Virus record (IMG/VR): IMGVR_UViG_3300017989_000330
DNA length: 29,909 bases
Strand: one strand, 5' to 3'
Origin: a virus
Shown: positions 18,265-23,022 of the stretch, in pieces
How positions within the stretch are numbered: position 1 is the stretch's first letter
Layout: the number at the start of each line of letters is the position of its first letter
Program-made: the position numbers and the translations under genes
Notes under the pieces: generated by a model
What the model saw: only the letters and a program-made list of their open reading frames with translations
Database searches by the model: none
What the model was told of the DNA's origin: nothing

Positions 18265-18370
18265 TGGTTATCCTTTCAATAGATAAATCATCATCTTTCT
18301 CCCAAACACTCGTCACACAACTTTTTTCATATTTTAAAATATTATCCTTTGGTGTCTTTCGTTTAGTCAT
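18257..18370 (-). CDS. 37-aa hypothetical peptide
   Basis: ATGA overlap with the methyltransferase stop; SD AAAGGA. Confidence 0.45.
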   Translation of the reverse strand: MTKRKTPKDNILKYEKSCVTSVWEKDDDLSIERITND

Positions 18371-19960
18371 AATATCCTTTCCACAATGGCTTGAACAACA
18401 TTAGTTGTAATTGCGTTACCGAGCGTCTTATAACGCTGTGTATCTGATATTATAACTTCTTTTCCATTCATGTCAAGTCCCTTCTCCGTCCATCCATCCG
18501 GGAATCCTTGGAGTCTTTCTGCCTCGACAGGTGTTAAGCGTCTGATACGCACTTGCTCTATATATTGCCCACATCCACCAGTAGTCGGCATACAAAAAGC
18601 CTCATCGTTCTTGCATAAAGTTCCAGACCCACCACTTGAATATTGTAAAGATGGTCTGTTTGGATTTCTTGTTTGCTGGTTGATTACTAGTAACGATCTC
18701 TTACGCCTCTCATTATTTTTTTTGTTCGTTCCTTCGATAGGAAATACTTCTGGTCGACTTGTTCCTCTAAGATGTCCGACAATGAAATATCTTGAAAAGT
18801 CTCCGAGGTGTTTGGTGATGTAAAGAGAATTGCTTTCCGAGAGAGTATATTTTTCTGCTTTCTTATTGATTCTTGCATATTTCGTACCTTCCTTGATTAG
18901 GATTAAATTTGATAATGTTTCTTCCCATAAGTTCCTTGACGAGTTTCTCAAGTAAACGGTGAGCGTTAAGATGCTTAGAAGCATTCTCGAATAAGAAAAG
19001 GTTTCCCAATTCATTATTTCGTTTATCACAGTCAATATGGTGTACTTGTTCTGTCCTAAGTAATTTTCTTCCCATTCGTTTTGCAACAAGGACTCTATGT
19101 TCCGCCATAAATTTACCCTTACCAATGGATATTTGCTTTCTTCCAAACTGGTCGAAATGATAGCCTTTGTACTTTCTGCGAATAGGTTTTGGTTTTGGCT
19201 TATTTCTTTCAAGATTAGACAACTTAATATCGAGTCTTTCGATTCTGCTTCTTGTAGCTTTTTCGCTTCTGTTAAGTTTTTTAGCAATATCTGGAACAAG
19301 AATTGTTCTATATACTTTTTTAATGTATTCATCTTCTGATACTGACCAACGATTTCTTTTAAATGTGTGCATATAAAAAATATCCTTTCTCTGTTTTGGG
19401 GAACACCATAATTCTTTGAGTTGTAATTATCATAGTTTATATAATACCCCAAATTAGATAAAGATTCAACCACTTTTTCCATTACCTTTCCTTTTGAAGC
19501 AGAAAGAATACCTTTTACGTTTTCTAGTAAAGCAAAACGAGGTTGCTTGGATTTAAGACACCGTATGATTTCAAAAAACAGTTTCCCTCTTGGGTCATCA
19601 AGAGAGAGCCGTTTTCCTGCAATAGAAAATGATGGGCAAGGAAATCCACCGACCAAGAGGTCAAAGTCTGGAACAGTTGTCCAATCAATTCTTGTGCAAT
19701 CTCCATAGTTCTTGTGTCCTTTAAAGTGTTTTTCATAGATTTGGATGGCGTATTTATCGATTTCGGAGAAACCGACACACAGGGGCGATTTGCTGTTCCT
19801 CCACCCCCGCTCGTTCCCGCTTCCAAGCATTGACATATCATCTGCGGAGTGTGAAGCTTCGCACTTCCACCTTTGAAAACTCTTATTGATCCCAAGTTCA
19901 AACCCTCCTTTAACCGATGCCTGAAAACATCGAGAAATATTTAAATTGTTTAGGCATCAT
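18367..19960 (-). CDS. C5 cytosine DNA methyltransferase; motif I interrupted by a stop plus 7 nt; 198-codon in-frame insertion
   Basis: Motif I FSGIG/GFELG, motif IV GGFPC, motif VI LENVKG, motif VIII PQNRERIF, motif IX RRLTPVEAERLQGFPD, motif X LGNA. Start ATG 19960 has SD GAGGAGG. Could be recoded or a pseudogene. Confidence 0.9.
18687..18878 (-). CDS. 63-aa ORF in the +1 frame of the methyltransferase (LSDILEEQVDQKYFLS)
   Basis: SD AAGGAAGGT 7 nt before ATG; overlaps the HNH stop. Confidence 0.45.
   Translation of the reverse strand: MQESIRKQKNILSRKAILFTSPNTSETFQDISLSDILEEQVDQKYFLSKERTKKIMRGVRDRY
18784..19377 (-). mobile_element. 594-nt HNH-bearing insertion in methyltransferase motif VIII
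   Basis: Removing it restores PQNRERIF-IVGHLRG. Confidence 0.7.
18863..19372 (-). CDS. HNH homing endonuclease (169 aa) nested in the methyltransferase gene
   Basis: AEHR.LVAK.MGRKL...EQVHHIDCDKRNN...NL signature; SD AAAGGA 10 nt before ATG. Confidence 0.9.
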   Translation of the reverse strand: MHTFKRNRWSVSEDEYIKKVYRTILVPDIAKKLNRSEKATRSRIERLDIKLSNLERNKPKPKPIRRKYKGYHFDQFGRKQISIGKGKFMAEHRVLVAKRMGRKLLRTEQVHHIDCDKRNNELGNLFLFENASKHLNAHRLLEKLVKELMGRNIIKFNPNQGRYEICKNQ

Positions 19961-20370
19961 TGGGCATCACCTCCTCGTGTGGACAATACCCATAGATTCC
20001 TCTAGCCATATTACAATTATGGCATAGCACTCTGAAACCTTTTGGGTATTTGTTCCTCCGTAACCACGGTGCAATAGACCTATCAGGCATTTGCTTGCGG
20101 TGTTTAGCACCATCATTGTTAATATGGTCAAAACATAAAAACTCGATATGTGTTTCCCCACAACAAGCACATTTGCCACCATAGTGTTGGATAGCTTTTA
20201 TTCTTACTCGCCGCCTATATCGTTTATTCTTTTCTACATACTTCTTCTTTCGTTCTTTAGGGAGATTTTTATAATACTCTCTTGCATCAGAACGAAGTTT
20301 ATCCCTATTTTTTTCTCTCCATTTTCTGCTATATTCTTTTAAATATTGTTTCCTATCCAAAAAACACTTC
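19909..20370 (-). mobile_element. 462-nt HNH-bearing insertion between two copies of methyltransferase motif I
   Basis: Removing it joins MKYFSMFSGI (20400-20371) to GGFELGI (19908 onward) in frame. Confidence 0.6.
19950..20360 (-). CDS. HNH endonuclease with zinc-binding Cys pairs (136 aa)
   Basis: GGKCACCGE.....FDHINNDG ... LCHNCN motifs; basic N-terminus. Confidence 0.9.
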   Translation of the reverse strand: MDRKQYLKEYSRKWREKNRDKLRSDAREYYKNLPKERKKKYVEKNKRYRRRVRIKAIQHYGGKCACCGETHIEFLCFDHINNDGAKHRKQMPDRSIAPWLRRNKYPKGFRVLCHNCNMARGIYGYCPHEEVMPNDA

Positions 20371-20400
20371 TATCCCCGAAAACATTGAAAAGTATTTCAT
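20353..20400 (-). pseudogene. Orphan methyltransferase N-terminal fragment (MKYFSMFSGIEVFFG*)
   Basis: ATGA-coupled to the upstream ORF; nine residues identical to the copy at 19942-19916. Confidence 0.7.
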
Positions 20401-20567
20401 TGTTCTTTTCTCACTTTATACCTATTAAAATCTCCATCTAATATTTCTTTGATATAAGCAAATGCATGTTCTTTTCTTATAAAATACATAGTTTTGTCGT
20501 GCGAACCAAAAACAGTTCCTAAACATTCGACGCCATCAAAAATTAAAATAAAATATGAACCTCGCAT
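20397..20567 (-). CDS. Hypothetical protein (56 aa)
   Basis: TAATG/ATGA coupling at both ends. Confidence 0.5.
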   Translation of the reverse strand: MRGSYFILIFDGVECLGTVFGSHDKTMYFIRKEHAFAYIKEILDGDFNRYKVRKEQ

Positions 20568-20734
20568 TATTTTTTCTCCAGTATTTTTCTAGTGAGTTCG
20601 CATCCAAACAAAGCCCCAGTTATAAAAGCCTGATATAACATTTTATCAATACTTTTGTTCGCAACTTTAATATCGTTTGCTTTTTTAAATTTATAAAATT
20701 GTAATTTTACTTCTTTTTGAAATTCAGAAATCAT
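20567..20734 (-). CDS. Hypothetical protein (55 aa)
   Basis: SD AAAGGA; stop overlaps the next start. Confidence 0.5.
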   Translation of the reverse strand: MISEFQKEVKLQFYKFKKANDIKVANKSIDKMLYQAFITGALFGCELTRKILEKK

Positions 20735-20736
20735 AA

Positions 20737-21312
20737 TTAATCCTTTTGATAAACAATTTCGTAATTAGAATTAGCTAATAATTTTTTATACCATGTGTGT
20801 GTAGTAGCCTCTGAATGAGTTTGATAATCAAATTTTTCTCCTATTTTCCAATACCAAGATAAAACTCGATTAATACAGATTTCAGTTTTTGGCCATTCTA
20901 AATAACGAGCAAACAGTTTTATTCCAGTCAACCAAGTTAAAAACTTACCAAAACAATTTAAAACATCGTACCCTCTTCCTAAATCTTTTAAAGATACTTC
21001 TTTTAAAACTCTTTGTTCTTCGATTGTTAAATCTTTTTTACGAAAGATAACTTGTCTTTTATTTAAACTCCAATCAGATAATTGAACTTTTGCTTGTTGT
21101 TCGATAATATCAACTAAATTAGTTTGTCCATTAAAATCGTTATTTATCACCATAGAAGCGTGATAATATTCAACTTTTTCTTGTGTATCTCTAATTTTTC
21201 TCCAAAGATGTTGAAAAACTGTTGGTGCAGTCATAAAAAATTTAACAATTTTTGGGCCAGTTTTATCTGAATCACTTAAAATAATGTCACCTATTTGTGG
21301 AATATAATTCAT
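20737..21312 (-). CDS. Permuted papain-like NlpC/P60 (YiiX/YebB-like) protein
   Basis: GDIIL ... YYHASMV ... GRGYD ... EICINRV: His before Cys order. Confidence 0.65.
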   Translation of the reverse strand: MNYIPQIGDIILSDSDKTGPKIVKFFMTAPTVFQHLWRKIRDTQEKVEYYHASMVINNDFNGQTNLVDIIEQQAKVQLSDWSLNKRQVIFRKKDLTIEEQRVLKEVSLKDLGRGYDVLNCFGKFLTWLTGIKLFARYLEWPKTEICINRVLSWYWKIGEKFDYQTHSEATTHTWYKKLLANSNYEIVYQKD

Positions 21313-21527
21313 TTTTTTCTCCAGTTAATAATTCCATAAATATTTAACGTTAAAAGTCCAATCGAACAAAACAATAACGCCCAATTTTGCATTAAAATAG
21401 CTTGAATAGCATATAACAAGTTGGCTAAACCATTAGAATAAAAACCTAAAACATTCTTTTCAGCTAGTGCATAAACACCATAAAAGAAACATATATTTCC
21501 TATCCAACCTAAAATTTGTTCAATCAT
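21309..21527 (-). CDS. Small 3-TM membrane protein (PnuC/SemiSWEET-like half transporter)
   Basis: Three hydrophobic helices; ends NIYGIINWRKK. Confidence 0.55.
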   Translation of the reverse strand: MIEQILGWIGNICFFYGVYALAEKNVLGFYSNGLANLLYAIQAILMQNWALLFCSIGLLTLNIYGIINWRKK

Positions 21528-22339
21528 TTATAATTCTCTTTCGCTCTTTCCAAATTTTTATAACTAACCCAACCAGAAATATTATACTTTCTTTTTAATA
21601 ATCTTTGTCCTTCACGAAAATTAATATCTCGATACTTAGTTTTATATTCTTGAGATCTTTCAGTTTGTTTTGTTAATGTGATGTAATCTGTCCAACCACA
21701 CTTTACATCCGCCTGTTTAAGTCGCCAAAACATATCCTCGTGTTCACATAATTTAAAATTTTCATCCCATTTAGTTTTTAACAGAACATCTGTTTTTGCT
21801 AAAAAACAATTTCTCATTATATCAACATCCCATAAATTAATAGGATATCCTTTCTTATCTACGAAACCAATATAATGAATTTTCTTTTTATCAATAAAAT
21901 CTAATTCAAATGAATCGCCTTTAATTAAATTAAGTTTGGCTTCCCATCCACAGATACTTGGGATTAATTCGATTCCGATAATATCAAAATGTCGATCTTT
22001 AATAATTTGCATTAGATTACAAATATTTTTAAAATCATTATTAAATATAAAAGAATCACTTCCCAAAAAAACATAATCACATTTCTTTTCTTTAGCTAAT
22101 TCAACGAGTCGATTTCTTGTATAAGAAAGTCCACAATTAAATGGGTATTCTCTATAATGAAAAGAATCTCTCATTTTTTCTTTCATTTTTAAAACCCATT
22201 GAGCTTTTTTGTCTGAAGGTCTGCCTTGATCGCCAATTAAAATAATACAATCTTTTGTATAATTATCTACAATAGATTGTATTGATTTATACAATAAAGA
22301 ATCTCGAAGAAAAGTAGAAATTAAAATCGCAGTTTTCAT
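21524..22339 (-). CDS. Glycosyltransferase family 2
   Basis: AILISTFLRD...IGDQG...NCGLSYTRN...DSD; C-terminal EHEDMFWR. Confidence 0.8.
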   Translation of the reverse strand: MKTAILISTFLRDSLLYKSIQSIVDNYTKDCIILIGDQGRPSDKKAQWVLKMKEKMRDSFHYREYPFNCGLSYTRNRLVELAKEKKCDYVFLGSDSFIFNNDFKNICNLMQIIKDRHFDIIGIELIPSICGWEAKLNLIKGDSFELDFIDKKKIHYIGFVDKKGYPINLWDVDIMRNCFLAKTDVLLKTKWDENFKLCEHEDMFWRLKQADVKCGWTDYITLTKQTERSQEYKTKYRDINFREGQRLLKRKYNISGWVSYKNLERAKENYK

Positions 22340-22341
22340 AA

Positions 22342-23022
22342 TTAGTCCCATAATGAGAAGAAATATTTTTCTAGTAGTCTCCACCCTTTACGATACTTTT
22401 TACATTCTTGTTTTGTCATTAAATATAATTTTTCTAATTCACGTTTTTTACTTTTACGATTAAATGTCTTAACAAATTGCGCTTCTTTTTTTCGATCTTT
22501 TTCATTTTCAATATAAATCCAACGATACTCTTGAATTTTTCTAGCCGTTTCAAAAGTAAATATAATAGTATTTAATATTTGATTCCATTTCTTCTGTGCT
22601 TTTTTAAAATCTTCATCTGAATCACTTTTACATAAGCCCACGGGAACACCTAATTTATTATTCTTTAAATGATTTAACATTTCTGGTAAAATTTTTGCTA
22701 AAAACCAAGACATGTCCCAAACATCTGAATCTGCCCATCCTCTTTTCCAGCGTTGAGTACCATATTTAAACCAATCATAAAGATTTTCGGGTATTTTAAT
22801 AAATCGTTCAATATTTATTCGAACTGTCAACCACAATTCTTTATACCAAATATCTTTTTTCTTTAAACTGGCAATAAACTCTTCAGTTGTTTTATAAGAT
22901 TTTCTTTTTATCATTTTTGTATTATCTCGTTTTAATTGCCATATATCATAAATATGTTTCCAATTTTGATAATTAAACGACACGTAAATCCATAAAATAA
23001 ATAAAATAGTTAAAATTGGCAT
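22342..23022 (-). CDS. Phage hypothetical protein (226 aa, ends YFFSLWD)
   Basis: SD AAAGGAG; long intact ORF. Confidence 0.7.
   Translation of the reverse strand: MPILTILFILWIYVSFNYQNWKHIYDIWQLKRDNTKMIKRKSYKTTEEFIASLKKKDIWYKELWLTVRINIERFIKIPENLYDWFKYGTQRWKRGWADSDVWDMSWFLAKILPEMLNHLKNNKLGVPVGLCKSDSDEDFKKAQKKWNQILNTIIFTFETARKIQEYRWIYIENEKDRKKEAQFVKTFNRKSKKRELEKLYLMTKQECKKYRKGWRLLEKYFFSLWD

Follow-up and report, generated by a model that had tools for sequence, protein, structure and literature searches.

The stretch of viral DNA analyzed here, IMG/VR record IMGVR_UViG_3300017989_000330 (29,909 nucleotides (nt), G+C 31%; referred to as the window), carries a gene for a C5 cytosine DNA methyltransferase (MTase) in which a complete gene for an HNH endonuclease is nested in another reading frame. 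All genes and segments of the window for which coordinates are given lie on its minus strand. The MTase open reading frame (ORF) of 489 amino acids (aa; 18367..19836; PF00145, E 9e-66) comprises, in this order, motifs IV–VIII, an insert, the target-recognition domain (TRD) and motifs IX–X, with motifs IV (PC), VI (ENV), VIII (QxRxR), IX and X all in a single frame; M.HhaI superposes on its first 139 modelled, N-terminal residues. The insert of 594 nt (18784..19377) follows motif VIII, so that the MTase frame reads QNRERIF, 198 extra codons and then IVGHLRGTSRPEVFPI on the IVGHLRG side. Over these 198 codons the MTase frame contains no stop, the HNH frame contains its own stop alone, and the third frame contains 24. 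The nested gene (18863..19372), in the -1 frame relative to the MTase, encodes a 169-aa protein with an N-terminal helix-turn-helix (HTH) followed by an HNH_3 nuclease motif (Pfam PF13392, E 4e-6; several HNH PHROGs, best E 8e-14). An earlier, sequence-only reading of the window had placed a 594-nt insert between RERIF and IVG of the MTase, with a complete HNH gene in another frame and an uninterrupted MTase frame across it; all three claims hold, the coordinates exactly.

The catalytic HH..D..N..N..H..H columns of the nested nuclease (H111 H112 D116 N120 N124 H134 H138) are invariant among seven relatives. Its ATG arises from the host-frame Ile-Cys codons ATA-TGC, and the position of this start is kept in relatives. 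Ten nt before the ATG lies a purine-rich, Shine-Dalgarno (SD)-like run (AGAGAAAGGA; 19383..19392) made of the N-R-E-R codons of motif VIII, and AGAGAR.. runs like it are present in six relatives. The sequence-only reading had the ribosome-binding site formed by the host codons R-I-F-F-I; host codons do supply it, but the purine run corresponds to N-R-E-R, and I-F-F-I make up the 10-nt spacer between this run and the ATG. Outside the HNH ORF the insert is left with 5 nt at its 5′ end and 79 nt at its 3′ end, 84 nt altogether. Directly 3′ of the insert is a conserved 78-nt segment (18709..18786; ~80% nucleotide conservation) that is shared with MTase genes of Clostridioides, Streptococcus, Lactococcus and other phages, and that reads FIVGHLRG..FPI in the MTase frame and SLSDILEE..KYFLS in the +1 frame.

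The open host frame across the HNH gene is beyond chance and is maintained by selection. The sequence-only reading had proposed a codon shuffle for stop avoidance together with searches for other occupied and for empty alleles, and all three were carried out. Synonymous permutation of the HNH codons, a conservative test in that it retains the ORF's own skewed codon usage, gave a stop-free host frame in 3 of 20,000 trials (P 1.5e-4; mean 5.1 stops), and the exact probability of a stop-free frame, given the HNH protein and the codon usage of the window, is 3.7e-8. The skew to which that reading had pointed is evident in the leucine codons, 9 of 16 being CTT (14% in window genes) and 3 of 16 TTA (61% in window genes). 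Other window genes contain 4–10 stops per 100 codons in the corresponding frame, and in the neighboring HNH gene (19950..20360) the same offset gives, as had been counted before, 5 stops over 136 codons. Occupied alleles pooled via HNH-alignment scans of viral, genome and metagenome collections comprise 21 non-redundant ones, and zero host-frame stops were found in all 21, over a GC range of 0.30–0.66, with a permutation P of ≤0.002 for each AT-rich allele. In the L010 allele, the HNH has an additional HTH repeat of ~40 aa and the host frame is nevertheless open. Free-standing relatives of the same HNH family (n=27) have 3–13 stops per 100 codons in the equivalent frame.

Beyond stop avoidance, the peptide that the host frame encodes is under purifying selection. 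Across 15 aligned loci, identity at the three codon positions is 0.73/0.83/0.48 in the single-coded N-terminal MTase domain and 0.75/0.68/0.65 in the dual-coded stretch, in which neither frame has a relaxed wobble position. Where HNH residues are identical, third-base identity is 0.746, against an expectation of 0.516 for random synonymous codons and of 0.528 when stop avoidance is added; for these loci, the figure in the single-coded N-terminal MTase domain is 0.567. Consistently, the host-frame peptide has invariant columns among 22 proteins. AlphaFold2 predicts that it forms a bundle of about eight helices with a predicted local distance difference test (pLDDT) score of 73–88, both in the full protein and alone, with one loop and the last ~40 residues at low confidence. 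A known fold for the peptide was not found with Foldseek in the PDB at E≤0.001 or in the ESM Atlas (TM<0.4), and the peptide has no match in Pfam or PHROG. The sequence-only reading had described the insert as tolerated or unstructured; with HNH synonymous sites constrained beyond stop avoidance and a helical bundle predicted, the insert does not look like one in these models, and we drop that description. Because the HNH family also occurs free-standing elsewhere, the host-frame peptide is the younger of the two products.

Relatives of the interrupted gene place the insertion at a single site. When the MTase-frame translation of the insert served as a protein query, it retrieved 25 clusters that span the entire insert at 38–51% identity and are MTases with differing TRDs, and every DNA locus fetched contains an unbroken MTase frame and a complete -1-frame HTH-HNH ORF with its ATG at the same position. 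Among the 138 proteins nearest to the N-terminal domain, 42 are occupied, with the insert at one and the same point, and ~97 are empty and uninterrupted at that point. Empty alleles read QNRERVFI(I/V)GHLRGTSRPEVFPIG (GHLRG...); at the junction, precise removal of the insert leaves the reading QNRERVFIVGHLRG, and the empty-type sequence spanning the site is CCACAGAACAGAGAACGAGTGTTCATTATCGGACATCTTAGAGGAAC. In a tree of the N-terminal domain (105 rows, 138 columns, quick search), occupied versus empty requires one change (SH-aLRT 93), and 0 of 500 shuffles were as low. Moreover, the HNH and the N-terminal MTase domain have diverged to a similar extent (50–69%). Because the occupied alleles fill one side of a single tree branch, the pattern speaks for one old insertion passed down with the MTase gene, not for visibly active homing. 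Thus, where the sequence-only reading had suggested a dual-coding homing element, the dual coding is real and selected, and ongoing homing is not detectable on this single branch.

Recombination downstream of the insert is visible in the metagenomic contig L257. This contig matches window 22453..18735 at 99.87% identity over 3.7 kb and is unrelated beyond the breakpoint at 18735 (L257:3719), which lies 49 nt past the insert and within the conserved GHLRGTS segment. L257 and the window therefore have the same N-terminal half and insert and differ in their TRDs, and the conserved 78-nt segment may serve as a recombination point. In a further contig, L178 (1,079 bp), the N-terminal MTase part and the insert are in different frames, possibly through an assembly error. 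Two additional observations concern other insertions in these genes. At L001:4475-4921 (gene nt 1475–1921), a second host-open insertion, between motifs IX and X of the MTase, holds a +1-frame HNH with zinc ribbons, so that two nucleases are hidden in a single gene. Furthermore, occupied MTases have a variable extra stretch of 20–150 aa in alignment A1 (columns 50–330, from motif I to CVGxSEIDKYA); read in +1, this stretch is similar in L003 to SPCLTSAMG.GGGQ.P, a TRD motif from a different member of the family, and a CxxC...CxxC pattern is present in the host frame of P0005. These extra stretches after motif I may be scars of further insertions.

How the two halves of the MTase are joined was approached by looking for known routes of removal or recoding. 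A group I intron was rejected, as a ribozyme core (P3–P9) was not found by covariance model and just 84 nt lie outside the HNH ORF; Rfam searches for group I and group II introns at E up to 10 gave no match in the window or in four related loci. Likewise, an intein was rejected: the insert has no N-terminal Cys/Ser, no block A or B and no C-terminal His-Asn followed by Cys/Ser/Thr, its end (...F-I-x-G-H | L-R-G) being without HN and without a nucleophile, the AlphaFold2 models are all-helical without a HINT beta fold, and there was no match in the PDB or the Atlas. The conserved Cys at the start of the insert owes its TGC codon to the HNH ATG. The absence of intein termini and the limited room for a group I intron had been noted in the sequence-only reading, and neither element has left a signature. 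A fusion of MTase and HNH by -1 frameshifting was discarded as well, since A TTT TTT A is present only in the window and the T-run is not conserved; the corresponding junctions of relatives read ATC TTC TTC AAA, GTT TAT CTA GTA and others. Finally, a deletion between the GATATTT repeats at the two junctions would, as read from the sequence, leave a frame with a stop. In the occupied alleles, the downstream motifs IX–X are conserved in the frame of the N-terminal MTase part, and among those compared there is no conserved in-frame start after the insert; therefore, the C-terminal half needs read-through. Read-through without splicing would be the simplest and most economical route for expression of the C-terminal half of the MTase.

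Taken together, we consider it probable that the window contains a long-resident out-of-frame HNH gene whose host-frame reading is now a selected extra domain of the MTase, expressed by read-through. In our model, a phage C5 MTase gene would harbor, in its -1 frame, an HNH homing-endonuclease gene that sits just after motif VIII, where the variable region begins, and this element, which has neither a ribozyme nor a protein-splicing domain, would persist via a host frame that is kept open and is under purifying selection. Translation initiated on the MTase would continue through the insert without a break and yield an MTase with an extra domain of ~150 aa and a linker of ~40 aa, the extra domain being a predicted helical bundle without a known relative that would have arisen through overprinting of the HNH gene. 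IFF-I/L-C-x-H, with which the insert opens, may replace the displaced beta strand IFIVGH. Low-level synthesis of the HNH would start at its own ATG, downstream of the purine-rich run of the QNRER codons. We infer that the enlarged MTase methylates and that the HNH cuts empty alleles, and the C-terminal half would be expressed by read-through.

A third frame that the sequence-only reading had left out is also conserved in the 3′ tail of the insert. Here, a +1-frame ORF of 63 aa (18687..18878; MQES...SLSDILEEQVDQKYFLS...; phrog_16143, E 4.5e-7) begins with an ATG 11 nt ahead of the HNH stop and overlaps the tail of the insert and the FIVGHLRG..FPI segment. Variation at the 3′ end of the insert falls on the third base of the +1 codons, which read MQES...LTSP...SLSDILEE.VD.KYFLSEK. 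Just after the +1 reading KYFLSKERTKK in the window there is an A8 run (ACAAAAAAAATAATG; 18712–18726), and slippage or an indel in this homopolymer could swap the +1 and MTase frames. Uninterrupted MTases of the GHLRG type have a long +1 ORF (140–250 codons) over motifs II–VIII that belongs to phrog_16143 and ends in SLSDILEE..KYFLS. This ORF is open beyond the permutation expectation in six uninterrupted genes (P<0.001; the loci listed for it are L258, L259, L260, L254, L255 and L007), and in a control MTase of a Bacteroides phage the +1 frame is not significantly open. In L260, the MTase frame changes from GHLRGTS to GHSRRTR, whereas the +1 reading changes by one residue. A +1 ORF of 125 aa over the N-terminal MTase domain of the window (19524..19901) corresponds to the N-terminal part of the relatives' long +1 ORF; the long ORF is broken by the HNH insert, which also provides a fresh ATG for the final ~60 codons. 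The +1 ORF of the window and of most relatives runs for 60–110 codons before a stop, and the TRD and motifs IX–X stay in the N-terminal frame. The +1 peptide was not found in frame within longer full-length proteins, and the Atlas gave no usable match for the long +1 ORF. It is conceivable, although we are doubtful, that all three frames of the overlap are selected, the HNH cutting the +1 ORF, the MQES start re-supplying its C-terminal part and the host-frame reading being a new folded domain. If true, overprinting on a homing endonuclease would have given rise to a de novo protein domain that has long been fixed. The conserved third frame leaves the main finding unchanged; it keeps a split enzyme or another expression scheme alive as a rival.

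The N-terminal end of the MTase is disrupted in the window. A second HNH gene (136 aa; 19950..20360) interrupts motif I, flanked on each side by a copy of KYFSMFSGI, and has stops in the host frame. In addition, motif I is broken at 19903..19915, where ...FSGIG-TAA is followed by GGFELG in the frame of the 489-aa ORF; 7 extra nt (TTAAAGG) bring a stop and an AAGGAGG run. Motif I (FxGxG, S-adenosylmethionine binding) thus lies outside the 489-aa ORF, upstream in another frame, and the ORF restarts 22 codons downstream of GGFELG. Motif I is intact in relatives, such as the occupied alleles of L003 and L005, and its state in L257, at 99.87% identity, is the same as in the window. The sequence-only reading had the host gene spared by the insertion; for the gene as a whole this does not hold in the window, as the second HNH and the 7-nt frame break separate motif I from the 489-aa ORF.

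Several phage systems resemble the element in part. The only cultured relatives of the window HNH are in cluster J mycobacteriophages (Constella gp104/gp105, Thibault, Bombitas), where a homologous HNH (34% identity over 95% of the length) is located at the same site (PQRRRRLFFVC...) and in the same -1 frame of a C5 MTase (PF00145) whose host frame is open. In contrast to the window, the cluster J HNH has two HTH repeats, the GC content is 59%, and the MTase is split further downstream. GenBank annotates the cluster J pair as nested genes; we found no paper that discusses it, and the cluster J genome paper does not mention the pair. HNH endonucleases of the I-HmuI type are encoded by phage group I introns. 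As in the window, an HNH homing endonuclease is then situated inside a conserved motif of a phage DNA-metabolism gene, but the window insert has neither a ribozyme core nor space for one, and its host frame is open. An arrangement of a more intron-like kind is present at L014:2361-3290, where an HTH-HTH-HNH with 32% identity to the window HNH interrupts another C5 MTase 24 nt upstream of the window's site. The intervening sequence lies between WQVLN and AKDYGIPQNRERVF, contains stops and its own strong SD, and has non-coding flanks of ~120 and ~160 nt; as in introns, the last base is T in the upstream exon and G in the insert. An Rfam intron search of this locus gave no match. The TRD region downstream in L014 is distributed over three frames.

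Out-of-frame homing endonucleases have been described inside inteins, namely the dnaX intein (bioRxiv 10.64898/2026.09.14.751524) and actinophage inteins (bioRxiv 10.1101/2025.01.02.630785). These are similar to the window in that host-frame translation is needed over a stretch that also codes, out of frame, for a nuclease; they differ in that a HINT protein-splicing domain removes the insert, whereas the window insert is without intein blocks and is predicted to be all-helical. A +1 ORF over an MTase gene has been noted as a "total overlap" in the 5093-group phages of S. thermophilus, phage MM1 and Tn5252 (McDonnell et al. 2017, PMC5601072). Similarly to the window, the second frame in these genes covers motif VIII and the variable region, and it belongs to the same PHROG (16143) as the window +1 ORF, but the overlap occurs in uninterrupted genes and is unrelated to any HNH.

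The closest counterpart in kind is the ShiLan domain (Gosselin et al. 2023, PMC9957025; Arsenault, Gosselin and Gogarten 2025, PMC11855218). In this case, an actinophage methylase is interrupted by 202 codons that contain no host-frame stop, hide an HNH in the third frame and have no intron or intein features, and the authors propose that they are retained in the protein as a looped-out domain. The ShiLan insert begins similarly to the sequence that follows its insertion site, a resemblance considered as a potential group I feature (PMC11855218). The window shares with ShiLan an insert of ~200 codons in a conserved part of a methylase, the open host frame, a complete out-of-frame HNH, the lack of intron and intein features, and first insert residues that resemble those past the insertion site. 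The two differ in their hosts, which are an N6/N4 methylase (PF01555; checked for Pollywog gp67) for ShiLan and a C5 enzyme for the window, and in their nucleases, as the ShiLan HNH is flanked by zinc ribbons, starts at a GTG that lacks an SD, and aligns with the window HNH in its HNH core only. ShiLan is found in GC-rich genomes, in which alternative open frames are cheap, whereas the window family includes AT-rich phages; it has a disjunct distribution that points to active homing, whereas the window family fills one side of one tree branch; and its host-frame peptide is predicted mostly at low confidence, whereas that of the window is modelled as a helical bundle at pLDDT 73–88. From these comparisons of sequence, the window element is of the ShiLan-like kind and of a different lineage. 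The sequence-only reading knew of no described case; with ShiLan, and with homologs annotated as nested genes in cluster J mycobacteriophages, that statement falls. This kind of element was already published in 2023–2025, and the window family is an independent and statistically much stronger case, not a categorically new one.

Several observations weigh against read-through into a single enlarged enzyme. The AlphaFold2 pLDDT is <50 for the TRD and the insert tail, and a confident helical model from a small alignment is weak evidence for a real fold. In the window, the 489-aa ORF is without motif I, so that a complete enzyme is not obtainable by simple read-through alone. Conservation favors +1 over the MTase frame both in the closing 26 codons of the insert (amino-acid identity 0.45 versus 0.35) and in the 17 codons that follow it (0.78 versus 0.61). 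Lastly, in the metagenomic loci L181 (L181:1138-1794) and L179, which come from two Joint Genome Institute (JGI) samples and share an allele, the C-terminal half of the MTase, with the DILE motif, the TRD and motifs IX–X, is +1 relative to the N-terminal half; positions 162–323 of the PF00145 profile are in the +1 frame, and the N-terminal frame stops ~80 codons past the insert. These last two findings would agree with a split or differently expressed enzyme, in which the N-terminal fragment and the helical domain would work with a separately translated C-terminal part: at the 3′ end of the insert +1 is the best conserved frame, and in L181 and L179 the entire C-terminal half is behind the conserved Met of MQES. 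C5 MTases of two polypeptides from overlapping frames, split in the same variable region, are exemplified by M.AquI and M.EcoHK31I. In a variant of this scheme, the open frame would avoid premature termination or polarity in an operon with three overlapping frames. Nevertheless, we judge a split enzyme unlikely, because the +1 ORF of the window and most relatives is short and the TRD and motifs IX–X remain in the N-terminal frame, because the conserved host-frame peptide and its constraint on HNH synonymous sites would be left unexplained, and because L181-type alleles can be explained by recombination at the 78-nt segment, as between the window and L257.

Cryptic removal of the insert, by an unrecognised small or degenerate intron or by ribosome skipping, would make the open frame a side effect of other constraints. 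The intron-like setting of the related HTH-HTH-HNH in L014 agrees with such a mechanism, as does the resemblance of the first insert residues to the sequence past the insertion site, which has its parallel in ShiLan (PMC11855218). We rate this explanation as quite improbable all the same, as there is no Rfam intron in the window, L014 or three relatives (E up to 1–10), the 84 nt outside the HNH ORF leave little to form one, a conserved slippery heptamer is absent from the 5′ junction, and an intron would not explain zero stops in 21 of 21 alleles or the conserved host-frame peptide. That the MTase is a pseudogene whose frame is accidentally open could be argued from the disrupted motif I of the window; it is scarcely credible given probabilities of 1.5e-4 to 4e-8, the same state in 21 diverged alleles, and the conservation of the catalytic and C-terminal motifs in occupied alleles with an intact motif I. 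A nested HNH gene with a selected, translated host-frame domain remains the reading that we prefer.

For annotation, the window family carries a warning that long C5 methyltransferases with an unassignable middle of 200 residues may conceal a nuclease gene. Homing endonuclease genes are thought to persist in essential or useful genes only via a self-splicing intron or an intein. The reports on ShiLan proposed a third way, in which the element stays in the protein and the nuclease is coded out of frame; its basis is in GC-rich genomes, in which alternative frames are often open and statistical support is weak. The window family is an independent case with AT-rich phages, another methylase superfamily and another HNH lineage, and thus a cleaner system for asking whether such inserts are retained, whether a domain can be born by overprinting and what the hidden nuclease targets.

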